Shown here piece after piece: positions 3,257 through 11,932 of a stretch of DNA of 64,000 bases. How positions within the stretch are numbered: position 1 is the first letter of the stretch; every line of letters begins with the position of its first letter. Origin of the DNA: an uncultured bacterium (GTDB lineage Bacteria > Nitrospirota > JACRHL01); contig CBDUXI010000006.1 in NCBI GenBank assembly GCA_965371175.1, forward strand, positions 13,973 through 77,972, read 5' to 3'. The translations under genes were made by a program, and so were the position numbers. The notes beneath the pieces were generated by a model. The model was given only the letters and a program-made list of their open reading frames with translations. It made no database searches and was not told the DNA's origin.

Positions 3257-4219
3257 ATGATCTACGCCACCGGATTTTACAAAGATAAGCGCTACGCCTC
3301 GATCGACGAAGTGGTCGCCGCAGCCACCAAGTGGCTGGAGGATGGCAAAATCGGCATGGTGGTGGGGTACGGCCGTCAGAGCCCGTTTACCGATCTGACC
3401 ATGCCCACCTTTGTGAATCGGGCAGAAAAGCTGGCCGACGAACTGGTGTGGAACCGGCTGTGCGATTACAACCTGCTCAACTACGCCAATCTGGGGGCGG
3501 GAGAGGCCCGGCGTGGCAACGGTGGCGTGGCCATCATGCTCAAGCCGTGCGAACTGCACAACCTGGACATCCTCATGGAAGAGGGCGACATGTCGAACGT
3601 GAATCACGACAACGTGATTCCCATGGTCATGGCCTGCGCAGGCGTGTGCGAAACCGAGGGGCTGAACGCCTATACCGAAGGCGATGCGGTGCTGAAGGTG
3701 CAGACCAAGTGCCTGGACTGCCCGGAATATGTGAGCGCCCACGGCCTCGAAAAAGTGGAGGCCGAACGGGCCGAGCGCGAAGATTACCAGCGCTACACGC
3801 GGCAGATTGAGGACGATTCCGAAATCGACTGGGGCACCACCCTGGACAAGTGCCTGCACTGCTACGCCTGCCGCAACGTCTGCCCGTCGTGCTACTGCAC
3901 CGACGGCTGCCCGGCGGATGAGGCCGCCACCGCCCATGTGAGCAACGCCCTCAAGGTCATCAAGGGCATCGACGCCAGCCGCCAGATGATCTACAACCTG
4001 GTGCGCACCTGGCATATTCAGTCGCGCTGCTCCGAGTGTCAGGAGTGCGAGCGGGTGTGCCCGGTGCACATTCCCATCATGGCGCTCAAATCCAAGCTGG
4101 GCCGGGATTTCGACGGCGAAGGCAGCCCCGGTGACGTGATTGGATTTTTGACCAACTTCGCCGCAAAAAACTTGGTTTCCAAAAAGCCGGACGCGGAACC
4201 GGCGGAGAACAAGCCGTGA
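3257..4219 (+). CDS. Fe-S protein with two ferredoxin-type CxxCxxCxxxCP motifs; N-terminal region possibly FrhB/FdhB-like
   Basis: 'CLHCYACRNVCPSCYC' and 'CSECQECERVCPVHIP' are 4Fe-4S motifs. 'KPCELHNLD' resembles the G-x-PC signature of FrhB-family proteins (weak). The stop overlaps the next gene's GTG start (GTGA). Confidence 0.6.
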   Translation: MIYATGFYKDKRYASIDEVVAAATKWLEDGKIGMVVGYGRQSPFTDLTMPTFVNRAEKLADELVWNRLCDYNLLNYANLGAGEARRGNGGVAIMLKPCELHNLDILMEEGDMSNVNHDNVIPMVMACAGVCETEGLNAYTEGDAVLKVQTKCLDCPEYVSAHGLEKVEAERAEREDYQRYTRQIEDDSEIDWGTTLDKCLHCYACRNVCPSCYCTDGCPADEAATAHVSNALKVIKGIDASRQMIYNLVRTWHIQSRCSECQECERVCPVHIPIMALKSKLGRDFDGEGSPGDVIGFLTNFAAKNLVSKKPDAEPAENKP

Positions 4220-5304
4220 GCCCGGCCGGCTTTATCCGGCCCGAAAACCTGTGGCGCATGGTGGATGTACTCCACGGTCAGGGAATTCGGGTGGTGGCCC
4301 CCACCCAGGTGGAAGCGCTGTGCCTGTTTGAGCCGGTAACCGCCTCCGATCAGGTGGTCACCGACTATCTGCTGCCGCAAAACACGTTCAAGGAGTTCCT
4401 GTTCCCCAAAGAAGAGCAGGTGTTTACCTGGATCAAAAACCCGGACGGCAGCTTTGCCGTGACCGAGCCGCCCCGTAATTTTCCCGAAACCGTCATTCTG
4501 GGCGCACGCCCGTGCGATTCTGCCGGTATTGCCATCTCGCTCACCTCGGTCTTTTCGGGCGAAAAGTTCGGTCATGAAGACCCGCTGTATATGGAGCGGC
4601 TGGCGGCCACCACCATCGTGTCTATCTCGTGCGATGCCCCCGACATTTCGTGCTTCTGCACCAGCATGGGGCTGGGGCCGGACGACCCCAAAGGCAGCGA
4701 CGTGCTGATCACCCAGACCTGCGAGGAATCGCCGGTATTCGTGGTGGAGGTGTTCGGCAAAAAAGGCGAGGCGTTCGCCCGCAATCTGGGCGACCTGCTG
4801 GAAACCGGTAGAAAGCCGAAAGAGCTGGCCGACCTGCGTGAGCAAGCAGGAGAGACCGCCCGCAAAAAGTTTGTGCGGGTGTTTGATATTGAGGGCGTGA
4901 AGGCGTTTCTGGACAACCCGGATAACTTCGACGATGAGCTGTTCGCCCGGCTGGGGCAAAAGTGCATCTCCTGCGGAGTGTGCACCTTTGAGTGCCCCAC
5001 CTGCCACTGCTTTGATTTAAAAGATGCCGGCACCAAAGAAGAGGGCGAGCGCATCAAGATATGGGATTCGTGCCAGCTGCCGGCCTTTACCATCCACGCC
5101 ACCGGCCACCAGCCGCGCCCGGAGCAGTGGGAGCGGTATCGCAACCGCTTTATGTGCAAGTTCAAATACTACGAAGATACGTTTGAAACCCAGGGTTGCA
5201 CCGGCTGCGGCCGCTGCGTGCGCGACTGCCCGGTGCATGTGGACATCACCAGCTATGCCATGCAGTCGAACAAAAAACAGCAGCTGATCGAGATTGGCTC
5301 ATGA
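4216..5304 (+). CDS. AsrA/HydB-like Fe-S subunit (anaerobic sulfite reductase subunit A / sulfhydrogenase beta family)
   Basis: 'ARPCDSAGI', 'CISCGVCTFECPTCHC' and 'CTGCGRCVRDCPVHV' align with the conserved Cys clusters of AsrA-type proteins. GTG start overlaps the upstream stop; its own stop overlaps the next ATG (ATGA). Confidence 0.8.
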   Translation: MSPAGFIRPENLWRMVDVLHGQGIRVVAPTQVEALCLFEPVTASDQVVTDYLLPQNTFKEFLFPKEEQVFTWIKNPDGSFAVTEPPRNFPETVILGARPCDSAGIAISLTSVFSGEKFGHEDPLYMERLAATTIVSISCDAPDISCFCTSMGLGPDDPKGSDVLITQTCEESPVFVVEVFGKKGEAFARNLGDLLETGRKPKELADLREQAGETARKKFVRVFDIEGVKAFLDNPDNFDDELFARLGQKCISCGVCTFECPTCHCFDLKDAGTKEEGERIKIWDSCQLPAFTIHATGHQPRPEQWERYRNRFMCKFKYYEDTFETQGCTGCGRCVRDCPVHVDITSYAMQSNKKQQLIEIGS

Positions 5305-6215
5305 GTTCCCCGGTACTTAATTCGACTTCCTCGCCGACCCTCTCGTCAGCCCCCACCGGGGCCAACCTGTACCTGCCCAAACTGGTGCGGATCGACAAGA
5401 TCATCCACGAAACCCACGACGTACGCACCCTGCGGCTGGTGTTTGTGGACGAGGCCGACCGCAAGGCGTTTTCCTACAAGGTGGGGCAGTTTGGTGAATT
5501 CTCCGTGTTCGGGGTGGGGGAGGCCACGTTCAATATCTCATCGTCCCCCACATGGGACGGGTATTTCGAGTGCTGCTTCCGCACCGTGGGCGAGGTGACC
5601 CGCGCCCTGGCCCTGCACAAGGAAGGCGATATCATCGGCTTTAGAGGGCCGTACGGCAATTGGTACGACCTGGAAAAAATGCAGGGCAAAGACCTGATCT
5701 TTGCTGCGGGCGGCATCGGTTTTCCGCCCATCCGCTGCCTGGTCTGGAACGTGCTGGCCGAGCGCGAAAAATACGGCTCCATCACCGTGGTGCACGGGGC
5801 GCGTACCCACAACGATCTGGTCTATCAGAGCGAACTTGACGAGTGGTCAAAACGGCGCGATATGCACGTGGTGAAAACCGTCGACCCCGGCGGTGAGCCG
5901 GAAGACTGGGACGGCGAGGTGGGGTTTGTGCCGTCGGTCATCGAAGAGAAAGTCCCGTGGATTCTGGAGCGGGAGGGCAAGGGTCTCAAAAACGCCATGG
6001 CGTTTGCCTGCGGCCCGCCGGTGATGACCAAATTTGTCATCGCCGCCCTCACCGGCATGGGTTTCGGGCTGGATCAAATCGGCCTCACGCTCGAAAACAA
6101 GATGAAGTGCGCGGTGGGCAAGTGCGGACGGTGTAACATCGGCAGCACCTATGTGTGCCTGGACGGCCCGATTTTTACCGCCGATCAGGTGGCATTATTA
6201 CCGGATGATCAATAG
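5301..6215 (+). CDS. AsrB/HydG/PyrK-like FAD/NAD(P)H-binding oxidoreductase subunit with C-terminal 2Fe-2S
   Basis: Ferredoxin-NADP reductase-like fold with 'GGIGFPPIRCL', and a C-terminal 'CAVGKCGRCNIG' 2Fe-2S motif typical of AsrB/sulfhydrogenase gamma/PyrK. ATG at 5301 overlaps the upstream stop. Confidence 0.8.
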   Translation: MSSPVLNSTSSPTLSSAPTGANLYLPKLVRIDKIIHETHDVRTLRLVFVDEADRKAFSYKVGQFGEFSVFGVGEATFNISSSPTWDGYFECCFRTVGEVTRALALHKEGDIIGFRGPYGNWYDLEKMQGKDLIFAAGGIGFPPIRCLVWNVLAEREKYGSITVVHGARTHNDLVYQSELDEWSKRRDMHVVKTVDPGGEPEDWDGEVGFVPSVIEEKVPWILEREGKGLKNAMAFACGPPVMTKFVIAALTGMGFGLDQIGLTLENKMKCAVGKCGRCNIGSTYVCLDGPIFTADQVALLPDDQ

Positions 6216-6263
6216 GCACGGCGAACAGGAACGACCATGAGAGAGCGGCAAGAAGGAGGGGGC

Positions 6264-6794
6264 ATGAAAATTAAAGACCTGTCGATTCTGGAGGTGCGCA
6301 TCTTAAAGCACCTGTACTGCCAGAACCCGCACCGCAATTACCGTGACCCGTCCCTGCGCTTTAAATACGAGCGCGGGCTGGAACCCACCTCCACCAACGG
6401 CATGAAGCTGCGGTTACTGCTGTCCGGGGTCAAGAGCGGCTCCGACCTGCGCCAGCGCCTGAACCCGTCGGTCTGCCTGCCGGGCGGCACCTACGGCTTT
6501 ATCTACAGCCAGTTGAAAGCCCCGAAGATTGTGGACGGCACGCGCACGCTCATGACCGAGTCGTTCAAGCGCAGTTATCACGACACCCTGCGTATTTTGA
6601 TTGCCAAAGGCCTGGTGGACGGCTTTATCGCCGGCTACGACATCGCCGAGGGGGAAGACGGCTTTCGCGCCCCGGTCCCGGCCCGCTGGCAGAAATCGGA
6701 CGGCGACTGCGTACTGGTGAACGTGAGCCTGACCGAAGACGGTTTTCAGGTGGCGAGAGGCATCTTTTTGCAACTGGCCGAGGAGGGGGATTGA
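6264..6794 (+). CDS. Hypothetical protein
   Basis: ORF with a strong RBS (AAGGAGGGGG) before the ATG at 6264. No recognisable motifs. Confidence 0.5.
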   Translation: MKIKDLSILEVRILKHLYCQNPHRNYRDPSLRFKYERGLEPTSTNGMKLRLLLSGVKSGSDLRQRLNPSVCLPGGTYGFIYSQLKAPKIVDGTRTLMTESFKRSYHDTLRILIAKGLVDGFIAGYDIAEGEDGFRAPVPARWQKSDGDCVLVNVSLTEDGFQVARGIFLQLAEEGD

Positions 6795-7393
6795 GCCGTA
6801 ACCCCACGCGGCTTTACGTCACCCGCCACGGGCAGACAGACGCCAACCTGCAACGGCGGGTGCAGGGCCAAGGCGATACGCCGCTAAACGCCACCGGCGT
6901 GGCGCAAGCCGGGGAACTGGCGGATTATTTTGCGGGGAAAACAGTGGATGCCATCGTCTCGTCCGACCTGCCCCGCGCCCGGCAAACGGCGGAACTGCTG
7001 GCCGAACGGTTAAAAATTCCCGTCAGCTACCACCCGGAGTTGCGCGCCCGGCGCATGGGCGATTACGAAAATAAAACCCACGCAGAGCTTGTGGCCGCCG
7101 ATCCGGAAAATTTCAAACGGTTAAAGCACGATCCGGATTTCGTGCCGCCGGGCGGGGGCGAATCCACCCACATGCTGATGGAGCGCATGGCCCCGTTTAT
7201 TCAGGCGACTGCGGAGCGGCATGCGGGCGGGGCGGTGATCGTGCTGTCGCATCACAAAATCTGCCAGTTGATTGTGGCGAAAATCGCCGGGGGCGAAGTA
7301 ACGCCGATCCCCAACGCGCGGCCCGCCATCGTGATCTATGATGAAACCGGCTACCGTATCCAACCACAGGAGGTCCCCCATGGCGCTGCTTGA
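6791..7393 (+). CDS. Histidine phosphatase family protein (phosphoglycerate mutase-like)
   Basis: 'VTRHGQTDAN' RHG catalytic motif. TTG start preceded by an AGGAGGGGGA RBS. Overlaps the upstream stop. Confidence 0.8.
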   Translation: MSRNPTRLYVTRHGQTDANLQRRVQGQGDTPLNATGVAQAGELADYFAGKTVDAIVSSDLPRARQTAELLAERLKIPVSYHPELRARRMGDYENKTHAELVAADPENFKRLKHDPDFVPPGGGESTHMLMERMAPFIQATAERHAGGAVIVLSHHKICQLIVAKIAGGEVTPIPNARPAIVIYDETGYRIQPQEVPHGAA

Positions 7394-7937
7394 AACCGAA
7401 AACATCCCCATGGGCACGCCGTGCCCGGACTTTGAACTGCCGGGGGTGGACGGCAAAACCTACAAATGCTGTGACGACTTTGCCGGCTCCGACGTGCTGG
7501 TGATCATGTTCATCTGCAACCACTGCCCGTACGTGATCGCCATCGAAGACCGCTACGTGGCCCTGGCCCGGTATTTTGAACATGCCAGCGTGCAGTTTGT
7601 GGGCATCTGCTCCAACGACCCGGACGACTACCCGCAGGACAATTTTGAAAACATGAAAAAACGGGCGCAGCAGAAGGGGTACGGCTTTCCGTATTTGCAG
7701 GATTTGTCGCAACAAACGGGCAAGGATTTCGGCGCGGTCTGCACCCCGGATATTTATGTGTACGACAAAAACCGGGGCCTCGCCTACCACGGCCGCTTCG
7801 ACGATAGCTGGCAGGTGCCGGAAAAGGTGAAGGAAGAGAGTTTAAAAATCGCCATCCAGACCCTGCTGGACGGCGGCGCACCGGGGGCGGATCAGGTGCC
7901 GAGCATGGGGTGTTCGATCAAGTGGCGGCGGGGGTGA
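7380..7937 (+). CDS. Thioredoxin-like/redoxin family protein
   Basis: 'MFICNHCPYV' thioredoxin-fold CxxC-type active-site region. AGGAGG RBS before the ATG at 7380. Confidence 0.7.
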   Translation: MALLETENIPMGTPCPDFELPGVDGKTYKCCDDFAGSDVLVIMFICNHCPYVIAIEDRYVALARYFEHASVQFVGICSNDPDDYPQDNFENMKKRAQQKGYGFPYLQDLSQQTGKDFGAVCTPDIYVYDKNRGLAYHGRFDDSWQVPEKVKEESLKIAIQTLLDGGAPGADQVPSMGCSIKWRRG

Positions 7938-7968
7938 TGTTCGTTTCAGACTTTCAATGAGAGGCATT

Positions 7969-8361
7969 ATGGACACTCTTCACATTCACCTGTTTAAAAG
8001 TAGTTTTGGACCATTTATTAGCCTCTTGAATAAGCATGCTATTGCTTATAGCATGAGAGAGCAGCGCGCTGGCGTACCAATGGCGTCCTCTTCCGGAGTA
8101 GTTGAGGTTCTGACGTCACCAGCAATGTGGGGCGCACTTGCTATAGTGATTCGCACATTCATAAAGAGTCAACATGATCGCAAGGTAATAATCACTACAA
8201 AAGACAATGACATCATCCATGCCGAAGGGCTTACAGCTGCTGAGTTGGAGAGCGTATTGGAACGTTCACGGAGCTTTGCCGCCATAGAAACGGGAAAGAT
8301 TCCAAATAATCCAGATTCAGAAAAGGTTGAAGTTATCGGTAGGAATTTACCAAATGGGTAG
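7969..8361 (+). CDS. Hypothetical protein (gene A of the AT-rich island); start could be 7957
   Basis: ORF in a strongly AT-rich segment, with a GAGAGG RBS before the ATG at 7969. One hydrophobic helix ('SPAMWGALAIVIRTFI'). No known motifs. Confidence 0.5.
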   Translation: MDTLHIHLFKSSFGPFISLLNKHAIAYSMREQRAGVPMASSSGVVEVLTSPAMWGALAIVIRTFIKSQHDRKVIITTKDNDIIHAEGLTAAELESVLERSRSFAAIETGKIPNNPDSEKVEVIGRNLPNG

Positions 8362-8878
8362 CGAATTTAGTGATTTTCTGGCATTCCTAACAGGTGTGGG
8401 TGTTACGCTCGTTGTAGGGTTGTTTACAGGGCGTGCAATTTATAGAGCCACGGCAGATATCAAGAAGCCGGATGTTGTTGGTGAAGATGAATGGGAAAAG
8501 TTCTGGAGTAGTGGGGGAAAGAGAGGGAAAGTTTGGATTGGCGTGTTGGAACGGATCCTGTTTTTCTTGTGTATTTGGAGTGGTTCTATAGCCCTTATTG
8601 CGGCGCTCCTTGCGTTTAAAGTTGCGACAAAATGGCGATCGTGGGATGTAATCGTCGGCTTGGCTAATTCTTTTTCGGGAGGTAAAAAAAGCCCGAGCGC
8701 GGAGGGTGCGACACCTGAATCGGGCGGATTCGTTCACCTAACCGCACGGAAGGCTATCGGATCTCGGGTTGTTACCAGTTCCCTTGTTGGGACAATGTGG
8801 AACCTGTTGGCGGCTTTTATTGGGGTTGGTTTTGGACAAGAGGTATTTCCAGCGGCGCTGAAATGGTTACAGTGCTAG
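8354..8878 (+). CDS. Hypothetical multi-pass membrane protein (gene B of the AT-rich island)
   Basis: The ATG at 8354 overlaps gene A's stop (ATGGGTAG). Predicted TM segments: 'FLAFLTGVGVTLVVGLF', 'ILFFLCIWSGSIALIAALLAF' and 'MWNLLAAFIGVGFG'. The intervening loop is Lys/Glu-rich. Alternative TTG start at 8327. Confidence 0.55.
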   Translation: MGSEFSDFLAFLTGVGVTLVVGLFTGRAIYRATADIKKPDVVGEDEWEKFWSSGGKRGKVWIGVLERILFFLCIWSGSIALIAALLAFKVATKWRSWDVIVGLANSFSGGKKSPSAEGATPESGGFVHLTARKAIGSRVVTSSLVGTMWNLLAAFIGVGFGQEVFPAALKWLQC

Positions 8879-8968
8879 CCCGTAGGTCGGGCTGAATACA
8901 ACACACCCCACCACCACCAAACCGGGCAGCCCGCCCCGGCGGGCAAATGCACAACGGGGGACAAGCCC

Positions 8969-9478
8969 ATGATCATTTACCGCGAAGAAGAACCGGGCGA
9001 TCACGACGCCATTTTCCAGATCAACCAGCGGGCCTTTGGCGGCGACGAAGAGGCGCGGCTGGTGGATGCGCTGCGTAAACAGAAACTTGTGATTACCTCC
9101 CGCGTGGCGGAGACGGTGACGAATGGGGCCGGGGTGGTGGGGCACATTCTGTTCAGCACGCTGCCCATCAAGGGAAAAAATAAAACCATCAAGGCGGCGG
9201 CGCTGGCGCCCATGGCGGTGGACCTGGAATGGCAGGGGCGGGGCATCGGCTCCAGGCTGGTGCTGGACGGGCTTGCGGAATGCCTGGAGCGGGGGGTGGA
9301 GGCCGTTATTGTGGTGGGTCACCCCAGGTACTACCCCCGCTTCGGCTTTTCCGCCGCCATGGCCGAAAACCTTTCCGCCCCGTTCTCCGGCGAGGCGTTC
9401 ATGGCCGTGGAACTTGTCCCCGGCGTGCTTTCCGGCTTTTCCGGCACGGTAAAATACCCGTCGCCGTTCGGCTGCTAG
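8969..9478 (+). CDS. GNAT family N-acetyltransferase
   Basis: 169 aa. 'QGRGIGSRLV' acetyl-CoA-binding motif in a GNAT-sized protein. Confidence 0.85.
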   Translation: MIIYREEEPGDHDAIFQINQRAFGGDEEARLVDALRKQKLVITSRVAETVTNGAGVVGHILFSTLPIKGKNKTIKAAALAPMAVDLEWQGRGIGSRLVLDGLAECLERGVEAVIVVGHPRYYPRFGFSAAMAENLSAPFSGEAFMAVELVPGVLSGFSGTVKYPSPFGC

Positions 9479-9644
9479 GGTGGTAACCCTTCGACTTAGC
9501 TCAGGGCGAACGGTTGGAAGGGCGGGCCGCATCGGTGCTTTGGGCACGCGCCCCCTGATCGGTGCTGAAAAAATCGAAAAAACCTGATAGGTTGTGACCG
9601 GCCCGGACGACGCGAATCAAACCGCCGGATACGGAGAAAAAAGG

Positions 9645-10172
9645 ATGGGGATATTCCCGCGACTGTTTGCGATCGGGTGCGTACTGCTTCTGACCTCCTG
9701 CTCGTTCTACCGGGCGGCGGACGAAGCCTATCAGCGCGACATGGACACGGTGCGGGTGCAGCACGCTCACCGCATTGTGGAGATACTGGAAGCCTATTAC
9801 GCCAAACAGGGGTATTACCCGCTTGCCGATCGGCTACAAAAAGGGCGCGTGATTGAGGTGTTTATCACCCCGCGCCCCATCCACAAGGATATTTTACGGC
9901 AGGTGGCATCCGTTCCCCTGGACCTGCACCCGTTTGACCTGCTCCAGCAAGAGGTGTTCCGGGTGCTGGGAGAAGATGCAGCACTGCCCACCGAACCGCA
10001 AAAAGTGGCCACCTTTGCCCCCAACTACCACATCTATCACCTGACCCCCCGCAGCTACTGTGTGGGGGTGCACCTCTATTTTCCGCGTGAGGGTGCCCAG
10101 CCTGTACGGGGCGGCGGCAGCCAGTACCACAAATACGATTTGTGCAGGAATATTGAGGGAACCGGGGGGTGA
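9645..10172 (+). CDS. Hypothetical lipoprotein
   Basis: N-terminus 'MGIFPRLFAIGCVLLLTSCSF' has a lipobox. GGAGAAAAAAGG RBS. Confidence 0.6.
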   Translation: MGIFPRLFAIGCVLLLTSCSFYRAADEAYQRDMDTVRVQHAHRIVEILEAYYAKQGYYPLADRLQKGRVIEVFITPRPIHKDILRQVASVPLDLHPFDLLQQEVFRVLGEDAALPTEPQKVATFAPNYHIYHLTPRSYCVGVHLYFPREGAQPVRGGGSQYHKYDLCRNIEGTGG

Positions 10173-10261
10173 ACTGCCGCCGGTCCGGGGGCAGGCCGCT
10201 TCAGGCCTGCCCGAAGGCAGGCTCAGGGTTCCGCACGAACAGCTTGCTGGTCTTCCCCCCA

Positions 10262-10298
10262 CAAAAAAAGGGCCACGGAAAACCCGTGGCCCTTTTTA
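10262..10298. terminator. Bidirectional rho-independent terminator
   Basis: Hairpin GGGCCACGG-AAAAC-CCGTGGCCC flanked by an A-tract and a T-tract. Sits between convergent genes ending at 10172 (+) and 10326 (-). Confidence 0.7.
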
Positions 10299-10325
10299 GC
10301 CCGTTATGAACGTGGCCTCCCGTTC

Positions 10326-10598
10326 TTAATGCGTCTGCTCCATAAAATAGATCTCCGGCATGCCCTGCACCCCGGCGGTCTGCATGGCATTTTTGAGCTC
10401 TTCCGACTGGGCGAACGTGTGGGCCTCTTCCAGGTCGTTCCAGTCAAATAATATGGTGACCATGTTCGGGTCGTTTTCGTCCTGCATCACCATGTCCGAC
10501 GTGCACCCGGCCTCCAGCCGGTCTTGCGCTTGGGCATCGTATGCGGGCTTCCAGCTGGCGTAGTCGGCTACCTTGTGGCGGATCAGTACTTGCGACAT
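10326..10598 (-). CDS. Small hypothetical protein (possible ABM/Dabb-like alpha+beta fold)
   Basis: 90-aa ORF with an RBS-like 'AGGAGGAGAG' on the minus strand just upstream of the start. Family assignment is tentative. Confidence 0.5.
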   Translation of the reverse strand: MSQVLIRHKVADYASWKPAYDAQAQDRLEAGCTSDMVMQDENDPNMVTILFDWNDLEEAHTFAQSEELKNAMQTAGVQGMPEIYFMEQTH

Positions 10599-10717: not shown

Positions 10718-10812
10718 CCCCTCACCCCCGCCCTCTCCCACAAAGGGGAGAGGGGGCAGACGGGCTTTTTCTCCCTCTCCCCGTTTGTGGGAGAGGGCAG
10801 GGGTGAGGGGGA
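10718..10812. repeat. REP/BIME-like composite palindrome: two ~40-bp units in inverted orientation
   Basis: The unit 'CCCCTCACCCCYGCCCTCTCCCACAAA(C)GGGGAGAGGG' occurs once forward and once reverse-complemented around a TTTTT centre. Each unit contains its own hairpin (CCCTCTCCC-ACAAA-GGGGAGAGGG). Intergenic. Confidence 0.75.
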
Positions 10813-11071
10813 GCCCGGCCCGTTCCCGTGGCCCTTGGGCCGCAAGCCAAACGGCCTCCCGGTTTGCGTTTTCTACCCCATTCCTCTATAAAACGGGCGT
10901 CAACTTAAAGCTGCAAAATTCAGGTGACGGGGCGGTGTGGGGGCAAGTTTCTTGTGTCCGTATGGTCAAAAAAACCGTGGCCTGAATGTGTCGGGTACAG
11001 GAGTCTGTCGCCGCAGCTAAAATAAGTTAAACATCTGTTTTAATTGAAATTTAAGCAAAGGGGTAGTTGCG

Positions 11072-11932
11072 ATGAATTTGAAACGAAACCTGTCTGTTTT
11101 TTCACTGGCGGCAGCGTTCATGCTGTCCGGGGCGGCCACGGCCAGCGCCGCACCCGATCTGGTGGTTTCCAGCCTGAGCGGCCCGGCCTCGGTGGAACTT
11201 GGCGAGCCGTTCCTGGCCAACATCACCCTGACCAATCAGGGCGCAGACGGCGTGGACTCGGTGGCGATCGTGCGCTATTCCGTTTTTGTCTCCACGGATA
11301 CCACCCTGGACTCGGGGGACGTGTGCGCCGGGTACGGGGGTGTGGACCGGTCCACGCTGACTGCGGGGAGCAGCTACGCGACCAGCCTCATGCTGCTGTT
11401 GAACGCCTCCAACGTGCCTGCCGATACCTATTACCTCATCGCTGCGGTGGACGACTTGTGTGGCGGTTACGGACAGGTGGTGGAAAGCGATGAATCCAAC
11501 AATGACCTGACCGGAGCCACCATCGACGTGCTGGCATCCACGGCGCAGATTGATCTGACCATTGACGACGTGATCGGCCCCAACCGGGCGCAGCGCGGCG
11601 AAGCCCTGCGGCTGGATGTCTACCTGACCAACCTGGGGCCGGATGCCGCACCGGGACTGAGTGCGACGGCGTGCGGGTTTTACGTGAGTGCGTATCTTTC
11701 CACCGATACCACCATCGACACGTCGGACACGCTGATCGGCAGGGGTTGCATGGCCTCTCTGGCCGGTGGCGCAACCTTGCGGTTCTTCAAAGATGTGACG
11801 GTTCCCGCAGATATGCCCCGTGGCTTCTACTACTGGGGTGCCATCGCGGACGATACGGAAATCCTGGGCGAAACCGACGAGACCAACAACGCCTTCGGCT
11901 CACCGGATCGGGTGAATATCACCGGCAGGTAA
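11072..11932 (+). CDS. Secreted CARDB-domain protein (two CARDB-like repeats)
   Basis: Signal peptide 'MNLKRNLSVFSLAAAFMLSGAATASA'. Repeated 'DLVVS...TNQG...' modules end in 'ESDESNNDL' and 'ETDETNNAF', as in CARDB domains. Confidence 0.7.
   Translation: MNLKRNLSVFSLAAAFMLSGAATASAAPDLVVSSLSGPASVELGEPFLANITLTNQGADGVDSVAIVRYSVFVSTDTTLDSGDVCAGYGGVDRSTLTAGSSYATSLMLLLNASNVPADTYYLIAAVDDLCGGYGQVVESDESNNDLTGATIDVLASTAQIDLTIDDVIGPNRAQRGEALRLDVYLTNLGPDAAPGLSATACGFYVSAYLSTDTTIDTSDTLIGRGCMASLAGGATLRFFKDVTVPADMPRGFYYWGAIADDTEILGETDETNNAFGSPDRVNITGR

Follow-up and report, generated by a model that had tools for sequence, protein, structure and literature searches.

Two bodies of work describe the systems closest to the locus reported here. 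In the first, Kaur et al. 2020 (eLife, PMC7159879) defined a two-gene conflict system ('System 4') whose 5' gene encodes EACC1, its constant component, a protein with one conserved transmembrane (TM)-like helix bearing a patch of small residues. The product of the 3' gene opens with a caspase-like peptidase, or in rare cases a cyclase, to which any of about 50 alternative domains is joined. For a pair from Ktedonobacter, Evans et al. (10.1101/2025.11.14.688446) reported that a caspase fused to Avs12 cuts EACC1 (named KrEACC1 below) at the putative site Asp49, that the C-terminal EACC1 fragment alone is toxic, and that cleaved EACC1 permeabilises liposomes. In the second, Kieffer et al. (10.1101/2024.07.02.601719) found that about one third of the tested mobile-integron cassettes of unknown function protect against phage, and that about one third of the protective cassettes carry TM helices. 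Here we describe an island of low GC (guanine plus cytosine) content with two overlapping genes (named gene A and gene B) in a 64-kb stretch of contig CBDUXI010000006.1 from an uncultured bacterium of the Nitrospirota; this whole stretch is called the window. On balance, with a confidence slightly above even, we read the island as a horizontally acquired two-gene unit from the integron cassette pool, fixed between genes of a high-GC chromosome without integron machinery.

The island (7938-8880, 943 bp, unstranded) is bordered on the left by a redoxin gene (7338-7937) and on the right by a GNAT gene (8969-9478). Its GC content is 0.470, against 0.619 for the window and 0.60-0.61 for the 2-kb flanks. 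With a z value of -5.1, it ranks lowest of all stretches of its length in the 64 kb, and none of the others drops under 0.53. The left break falls directly after the TGA of the redoxin gene (7935-7937), and the right break coincides with the stop codon of gene B, 90 nt before the start of the GNAT gene. A preliminary description of this DNA had noticed the sharp fall, which is real, but had placed the value at 40-45% rather than at about 47%. The GC content at third codon positions (GC3) is 0.41 in gene A and 0.46 in gene B, versus 0.71-0.80 in six neighbouring genes. As the drop is seen at third codon positions, the low GC is not an effect of amino-acid composition, and the similar GC3 of the two genes suggests that they arrived together, so that co-transfer of A and B is probable.

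The product of gene A (7969-8361, + strand) is EACC1-like, 130 aa long, and combines an alpha+beta fold with a single hydrophobic helix. That of gene B (8354-8878, + strand), 174 aa long, is a membrane protein with four helices whose family is unannotated. The two genes overlap by 8 nt (ATGGGTAG, 8354-8361, + strand), from the start codon of gene B to the stop codon of gene A. The gene A start at 7969 is favoured over an upstream ATG at 7957 by the family alignment (MDTLHIHLFKSSFGPF versus the consensus METLPVHLFKDSFGPF), and the gene B start at 8354 agrees with the N-termini of the B relatives. A Shine-Dalgarno-like GAGAGG (7959-7964, + strand), read from the sequence, stands 4 nt ahead of the gene A ATG. 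Because gene A has its own Shine-Dalgarno and gene B starts within the last codons of A, the two genes are probably read from one transcript. The overlap and a first protein of about 130 aa with one hydrophobic helix had been noted before and are confirmed; the second protein, for which 2-3 TM helices had been given, is a membrane protein as described, but its long helices number four, with three or all of them hydrophobic.

Searched on its own, gene A gave no useful match in Pfam, NCBIfam, PADLOC or PHROGs, the sole match being a weak one to phrog_12509. A phmmer search of a 5.8-billion-protein collection identified 68 relatives at 40-66% identity (E down to 1.5e-39). They are 102-177 aa long, most of them 110-125 aa, and many carry PF19953 or the NCBI name 'effector-associated constant component EACC1'. 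This clade is strongly conserved, with 51% mean column identity. When scanned singly, 55 of 62 relatives matched PF19953, and seven of the ten tested against its gathering score (23.6 bits) exceeded it, with 24.7-32.7 bits over profile positions up to 16-105 of 107; the relatives in this score range are 52-58% identical to the window protein (phmmer E about 1e-30). The three closest relatives of the window protein reached 0 to 18.6 bits, under the gathering score. Since relatives pass the PF19953 cut-off and the window protein does not, gene A is, as judged by profile comparison, a peripheral and transitive member of EACC1 in a clade at the edge of the family. The preliminary description had recognised no established family in either protein, a statement that is not supported for gene A, whose clade is filed under EACC1 (PF19953) by Pfam and NCBI.

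The AlphaFold2 (AF2) model of the gene A protein (predicted local distance difference test, pLDDT, 83) consists of beta1-alpha1-beta2 (residues 2-30), a loop (31-42), beta3, a hydrophobic helix (51-67), beta4-beta5, alpha3 and beta6. The loop (REQRAGVPMASS, 8059-8094, + strand) is nearly invariant across the clade at R33, G35, M38, A39 and S41, is modelled with low confidence (block pLDDT 53), and is a candidate processing or recognition site. The helix (PAMWGALAIVIRTFIKS, 8119-8169, + strand) has small residues near its centre according to the model and the clade alignment; W54, A58, V60, A63 and F64 are conserved in it, and beta strands and helices lie on either side. The EACC1 trait, namely a single hydrophobic helix with a small-residue patch amid short alpha+beta elements, is present in gene A. 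With KrEACC1, taken from the supplementary table of Evans et al. (10.1101/2025.11.14.688446), gene A gave no BLASTP match. The A-clade profile was aligned to it by hhalign over beta3 and the helix (A 42-70 on Kr 51-79, 29 columns, E 0.0056, probability 6.6%). In this register the cleavage residue D49 of KrEACC1 stands opposite S41 of A, within the invariant PMASSSG loop, and the alignment has no Asp at the cleavage-equivalent position anywhere in the A clade. In the model, the architecture of gene A looks like that of KrEACC1 without the caspase P1 residue. Given distant homology and shared architecture, the likeliest role for A is that of a latent protein able to permeabilise membranes.

For gene B, a word-indexed search returned gene B alone, and no match was found in Pfam, NCBIfam, PADLOC or PHROGs. 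An exhaustive HMMER search returned 266 cluster representatives (E<=1e-3), mostly 145-200 aa and aligned over their full length. They share the signature LERxLFF...WLAFKVASKWxxW..VP...GTLxN, with G63, E66, F88, K89, K93, W94 and G146 invariant. The family has no Pfam entry of its own and no informative source name among its members. Its AF2 model (pLDDT 89, predicted TM-score, pTM, 0.82) is all-helical and is the source of the helix count given above. Compared with the PDB, the model gave generic helical matches only, and a PDB sequence search with an early B alignment profile returned noise only.

The genomic surroundings of both families were investigated in 84 loci (given with the prefix L), comprising 37 B loci from GTDB species genomes of a dozen phyla and 47 A loci from metagenomes and assemblies. 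Both families are sporadic, singletons in their clusters, and sit in integron arrays of unrelated phyla. They circulate as attC-bounded integron cassettes, mostly single-gene, in arrays near intI. The A homolog of Lysobacter solisilvae lies in an array of small same-strand genes parted by a 60-nt repeat (GCCTAACAATTC...GGCGTTAGGC), a textbook attC, and its TAA stop contributes to the R'' box of the site. This locus (L085 1-14378; CP060820, 2563425-2577802) has 34 near-identical 60-nt attC sites in 14 kb, and many of its cassettes are too small for called genes. The arrangement 'ccTAAc...GTTAGxx' is found downstream of A in many loci, and R' boxes stand 10-45 nt ahead of the A start codon.

A covariance model of attC was built from 22 sites of A and B loci, the R''/L''-L'/R' pairing being drawn by hand. 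In this pairing 82% of the cells are paired, versus 17-45% with slid partners, and 54 cells show compensatory changes; RNAalifold gave no structure on the attC alignment. Across 90 loci the model identified 136 sites, of which all but a few lie at the end of a gene and on its strand; L085 has 34 more and L095 at least 10. Its sensitivity is incomplete, which cuts both ways: some attC sites that can be recognised by eye score low or are missed, as in L001 (9-17 bits) and L042. Units of the form attC-A-attC were found in L047, L051, L053, L058, L059, L062, L063 and L075. An attC directly follows B in L004, L010, L021 and, with a weak score, L095; it directly precedes B in L012, and B is flanked by attC on either side in L028 and, for each of the two identical copies, in L034. 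On visual inspection, a dozen loci have R' boxes ahead of B. A divergent intI or its remnant lies upstream in L034, L052, L059, L070, L075 and L089-91. The Pseudohongiella metagenome-assembled genome (L034) has a complete integron with intI, at least 11 attC sites and two identical B cassettes about 2.3 kb apart (features at 3861-4805, - strand; 5896-6357, + strand; and 8247-8708, + strand). In IMG/VR, the sole match for either family was one contig with an A homolog, and there too an attC follows A.

Some A cassettes hold more than one gene. In L001, A and a 165-aa 4-TM protein overlap by 4 nt in one cassette with a weak attC on either side; in L041, A is followed by a Zn-ribbon-2TM protein and then an attC; and in L057, a NucS-like nuclease, A and a 4-TM S26 peptidase stand between two attC sites. 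No attC separates A from its tight partner in these three loci, and gene B is not homologous to the partners in L001 and L041 (hhalign probability <=0.2%). The origin of such a unit can be traced in L056 (3600-4120) and L059 (1836-2380), which share one A cassette (about 99% identical over about 420 nt). Measured against the attC sites of L059, the similarity begins just past the upstream R' and stops at the downstream R''. In L056, genes for a NucS-like PD-(D/E)XK nuclease and a 4-TM S26 signal-peptidase-like protein abut A without attC, inside two outer attC sites, and L056 is a clear case of cassette fusion via attC loss. The comparison indicates that partners come to adjoin A through attC loss. 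New operons may arise in this way, yet adjacency alone is no proof of cooperation. S26 peptidases prefer small residues at positions -1 and -3, a preference that presumably would fit the invariant A-S-S-G of the A loop.

Among all open reading frames (ORFs) within 5 kb of the A homologs, clustering revealed no conserved neighbour other than intI and a DUF5677-like cassette gene, and the neighbours of the B homologs are heterogeneous, with none conserved. Conserved chromosomal neighbours, which had been named in advance as a sign against mobility, were found around homologs of neither gene. That the neighbours are hypervariable follows from the homologs being integron cassettes. The genes downstream of A homologs all differ and include Schlafen/AlbA_2, AAA_15/21, PIN7, HEPN_AbiV and S26 peptidase, and among Diaphorobacter and Aeromonas assemblies, those with identical A proteins at the same chromosomal site differ in the genes downstream. 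We also considered a system made of a constant A and a hypervariable downstream effector. It was rejected for most loci, where an attC between A and those genes marks them as neighbouring cassettes.

Several further observations concern these neighbourhoods. Downstream of the A homolog, L073 has an uninterrupted ORF of 354 aa (4317-5381); at the corresponding place, L002 has a reverse-transcriptase gene (RVT_1, 450 aa; 6754-8106, - strand), apparently from a group II intron or a retroelement that inserted into this gene. DUF5677 lies directly upstream of the A homolog in L002 (5327-5962), is fused N-terminal to a B-family domain in a 478-aa protein (P0072), and is weakly matched, at scores under the Pfam cut-off, by genes in the cassette arrays of the A loci L056 (1586-2275) and L075 (2904-3689). 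In Hahella sp. (L093, 4165-6483), a B-family gene follows a 600-aa Peptidase_C70 (AvrRpt2-like cysteine protease) protein after 33 nt on the same strand. In L094 (6001-12456), a B-family gene stands beside an rve transposase, a ThsB-like TIR gene and phage capsid/protease genes, a mobile, defence-rich and non-integron context.

The window copy itself has two candidate traces of a cassette past. The heptamer GTTCGTT (7939-7945, + strand) stands at the exact left GC boundary, 23 nt ahead of the gene A ATG, and may be a relic of an R' box. The heptamer GTTATCG (8332-8338, + strand) stands 15 nt ahead of the gene B ATG, in the extended C-terminal tail of gene A, and may be the R' relic of a lost attC. 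Elsewhere, the start codon of A and B cassettes is preceded at 10-45 nt by a GTTAGGC, GTTATGT or GTTCGAC box, and the spacing of GTTATCG equals that of GTTATGT/GTTATGA ahead of the solo B cassettes in L034 and L028. The attC model gave no score at GTTATCG, and such heptamers are frequent by chance; we take both as weak leads. As the preliminary description had stated, the window has no integrase, tRNA or direct repeats at the island: a tRNA scan was negative, Rfam gave no family match, no IntI-like ORF was found by tblastn with IntI from L075 and L059 (best E 0.9), and no meaningful repeats flank the island.

A number of results weigh against the reading of the island as a captured cassette unit with an EACC1-like activity. 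With filters off, the attC model found nothing above 3.9 bits in 7800-9100, so that no attC flanks the island, and its single match in the 64 kb (8.8 bits, E 9.8) is a chance one; the cassette origin of this particular copy is circumstantial for this reason. No copies of A or B were found in plasmid or phage collections. The window protein A gives no PF19953 match even at E<=1, and the KrEACC1 match, given its E value, probability and 29 columns, is weak, so that a transfer of function from KrEACC1 to gene A would span a long distance. Ser replaces Asp at the position of gene A equivalent to the cleavage site, and gene B has no caspase or cyclase domain, being a 174-aa all-helical membrane protein. 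PADLOC-DB 2.0 gave no match for A or B (E<=10), nor for 63 B relatives (E<=0.01). Finally, when hidden Markov models of both families were run on six-frame translations of the 84 loci and the window, A and B were found together in the window only, with no second pair in 47 other A and 37 other B loci. The juxtaposition of A and B, unseen elsewhere, may therefore have no functional meaning.

This last point leads to the strongest alternative, which we hold to be possible but clearly the less probable account. It supposes that independent A and B cassettes were fused by attC loss and that the block landed or was left in the chromosome, the 8-nt overlap reflecting read-through of A into a former attC or 5' untranslated region and A and B not cooperating at all. 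The mostly solitary life of both cassettes and the uniqueness of the pair are what it would predict. The A tail of the window is the longest in the family (130 aa versus about 110-125), GTTATCG lies where B cassettes have their R' box, and L056 versus L059 provides a direct precedent in which attC loss joined an A cassette to unrelated genes. Set against this, an attC remnant between A and B is undetectable with the covariance model, and the independent tight pairings of A with a membrane protein in L001, L041 and L057 hint at a recurring theme. The similar GC3 of A and B speaks for co-transfer only and does not discriminate.

Less of the evidence agrees with a toxin-antitoxin or abortive-infection pair, the type of module proposed in the preliminary description, in which a membrane toxin B would be checked by A, or the reverse, the two being translationally coupled. 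The compact, overlapping genes, the one membrane protein and the foreign composition would suit such a pair. Toxin-antitoxin pairs are common in integron cassettes, and HicB, MazE-like and HEPN/MNT genes adjoin some of the homologs. A toxin and its antidote should co-occur, however, and here 47 loci have A but lack B, while 37 have B but lack A. Both genes also occur as single-gene cassettes with attC on both sides, and neither matches a toxin-antitoxin or PADLOC family. As many genomes tolerate either gene by itself, this explanation is disfavoured and we consider it improbable: the pairing, which had been proposed for a search in unrelated genomes, is conserved nowhere else in the sample, and neither gene needs the other. 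A native pair that serves some ordinary membrane or housekeeping function and owes its low GC to chance or local constraint agrees with the housekeeping-like flanks (AhpC/TSA redoxin, histidine phosphatase, GNAT) and with the lack of a mobility gene in the 64 kb, but is effectively refuted, and hardly credible, given a GC3 drop of about 0.3-0.4 limited exactly to the two ORFs, families that are sporadic in integron arrays of unrelated phyla, and no conserved chromosomal neighbours.

The capture of a two-gene unit from the cassette pool thus remains our preferred account of the island. Horizontal acquisition, already suspected in the preliminary description, is supported by the foreign composition, the compactness, and the relatives in mobile, defence-rich cassette arrays; from these we infer the donor pool and the route. 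As a possible mechanism, which as a whole we regard as tentative and rather doubtful, the gene A product would be made as an auto-inhibited alpha+beta protein. A trigger, either a protease or an infection or stress cue, would act on the invariant flexible loop GVPMASSSG; a cut of the caspase type is not expected, because there is no Asp in the loop. The event at the loop would free the C-terminal part with the hydrophobic helix, which would oligomerise in the inner membrane and permeabilise it, as for the distant Ktedonobacter EACC1. Gene B could supply a membrane-resident partner that gates or assists A, or a second and independent membrane activity; the functional coupling of A and B and the formation of a pore are both conjectural here. 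Since numerous small anti-phage genes, whose products often have TM helices, are known among integron cassettes of unknown function (10.1101/2024.07.02.601719), a defence role for the island is plausible.

The remaining features at the edges of the island are as follows. Its upstream neighbour (7338-7937) is an AhpC/TSA-type redoxin and its downstream neighbour (8969-9478) a GNAT protein. In 7600-9100, no sigma-70-like promoter was found, and no intrinsic terminator on the gene strand. A hairpin (AGCCCG-TAGGT-CGGGCT, 8877-8893, + strand) overlaps the gene B stop codon; it has no T-run and was not called an intrinsic terminator. An imperfect inverted repeat of 28 nt (75% complementary) joins 8888-8915, just past the island, to 9133-9160 inside the GNAT ORF and was judged to be due to chance. 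Its GAAT...GTTCAGC ends raised the thought of a giant attC, which was rejected owing to the 273-nt span, the right arm in the GNAT ORF and the lack of a model score. On the left, the histidine-phosphatase ORF (6791-7393) and the redoxin ORF (7338-7937), as listed, share 56 nt; a later ATG is the probable start of the redoxin, whose Pfam match begins at residue 26. A second, milder GC dip (0.51) lies in non-coding DNA at 10800-11100, just upstream of a CARDB-domain gene (11072-11932), with no attC model match there.

A wider proposal can be built on these observations, though we think it unlikely to hold in full. The protease-less EACC1-like clade would be a self-contained one-gene membrane-permeabilising immune or stress module spread between phyla by integrons, its invariant GVPMASSG loop triggered by a host or phage factor acting in trans instead of by a caspase of its own, and its membrane partners repeatedly swapped through attC loss, with B as a new effector or gate family and the window as a captured, fused module. 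The interchangeable membrane partners would be the 4-TM protein, the Zn-ribbon-2TM protein, the S26 peptidase and the B family. If this is true, EACC1-type pore formers would not be bound to caspases, and this clade would act alone or with swappable membrane proteins. The trigger would then become the question, for which the invariant PMASSG loop is a concrete handle. The A clade and the B family, with hundreds of clusters and invariant Glu, Lys and Trp in membrane helices, would extend the largely uncharacterised content of cassettes. The locus would also be a clean example of cassette genes that left the integron and became fixed elsewhere, which bears on the birth and death of cassettes. 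Within its own genome, the locus is simply a small accessory island.

Compared with the described systems, the locus shares several traits with the EACC1-caspase system. Gene A is a small 5' gene for an alpha+beta protein with one conserved hydrophobic helix with small residues, and is followed by a second gene on the same strand; relatives in its clade exceed the Pfam EACC1 gathering score; and its predicted N-terminal unit, flexible loop and C-terminal unit with the helix resemble the auto-inhibited KrEACC1. It differs in that members of the A clade are for the most part stand-alone integron cassettes lacking a fixed partner. No caspase or protease partner was found among the Pfam-scanned genes of 5196-10598 and 11072-11932 (oxidoreductase, histidine phosphatase, redoxin, GNAT, ABM-like, CARDB and two unknowns), the rest of the 64 kb not being scanned for caspases. 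The BRiCs (10.1101/2024.07.02.601719) are, like A and B, small promoterless one- or two-gene units, often with TM helices and without a recognisable domain. Close homologs occur inside and outside integrons, and the A and B homologs are bona fide attC-bounded cassettes near intI. In contrast to the BRiCs, the window copy has no attC or integron platform, and the A and B families lack a known phage phenotype; neither the A clade nor the B family is named in the literature searched. Bacterial gasdermins with their proteases, and Pepco, offer an analogy only, as latent small membrane permeabilisers freed by removal of an inhibitory segment; they have no sequence or fold relation to A or B, and no protease adjoins gene A. 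In conclusion, what is new in this locus is a protease-less, cassette-borne EACC1-like gene fused to a novel membrane partner.

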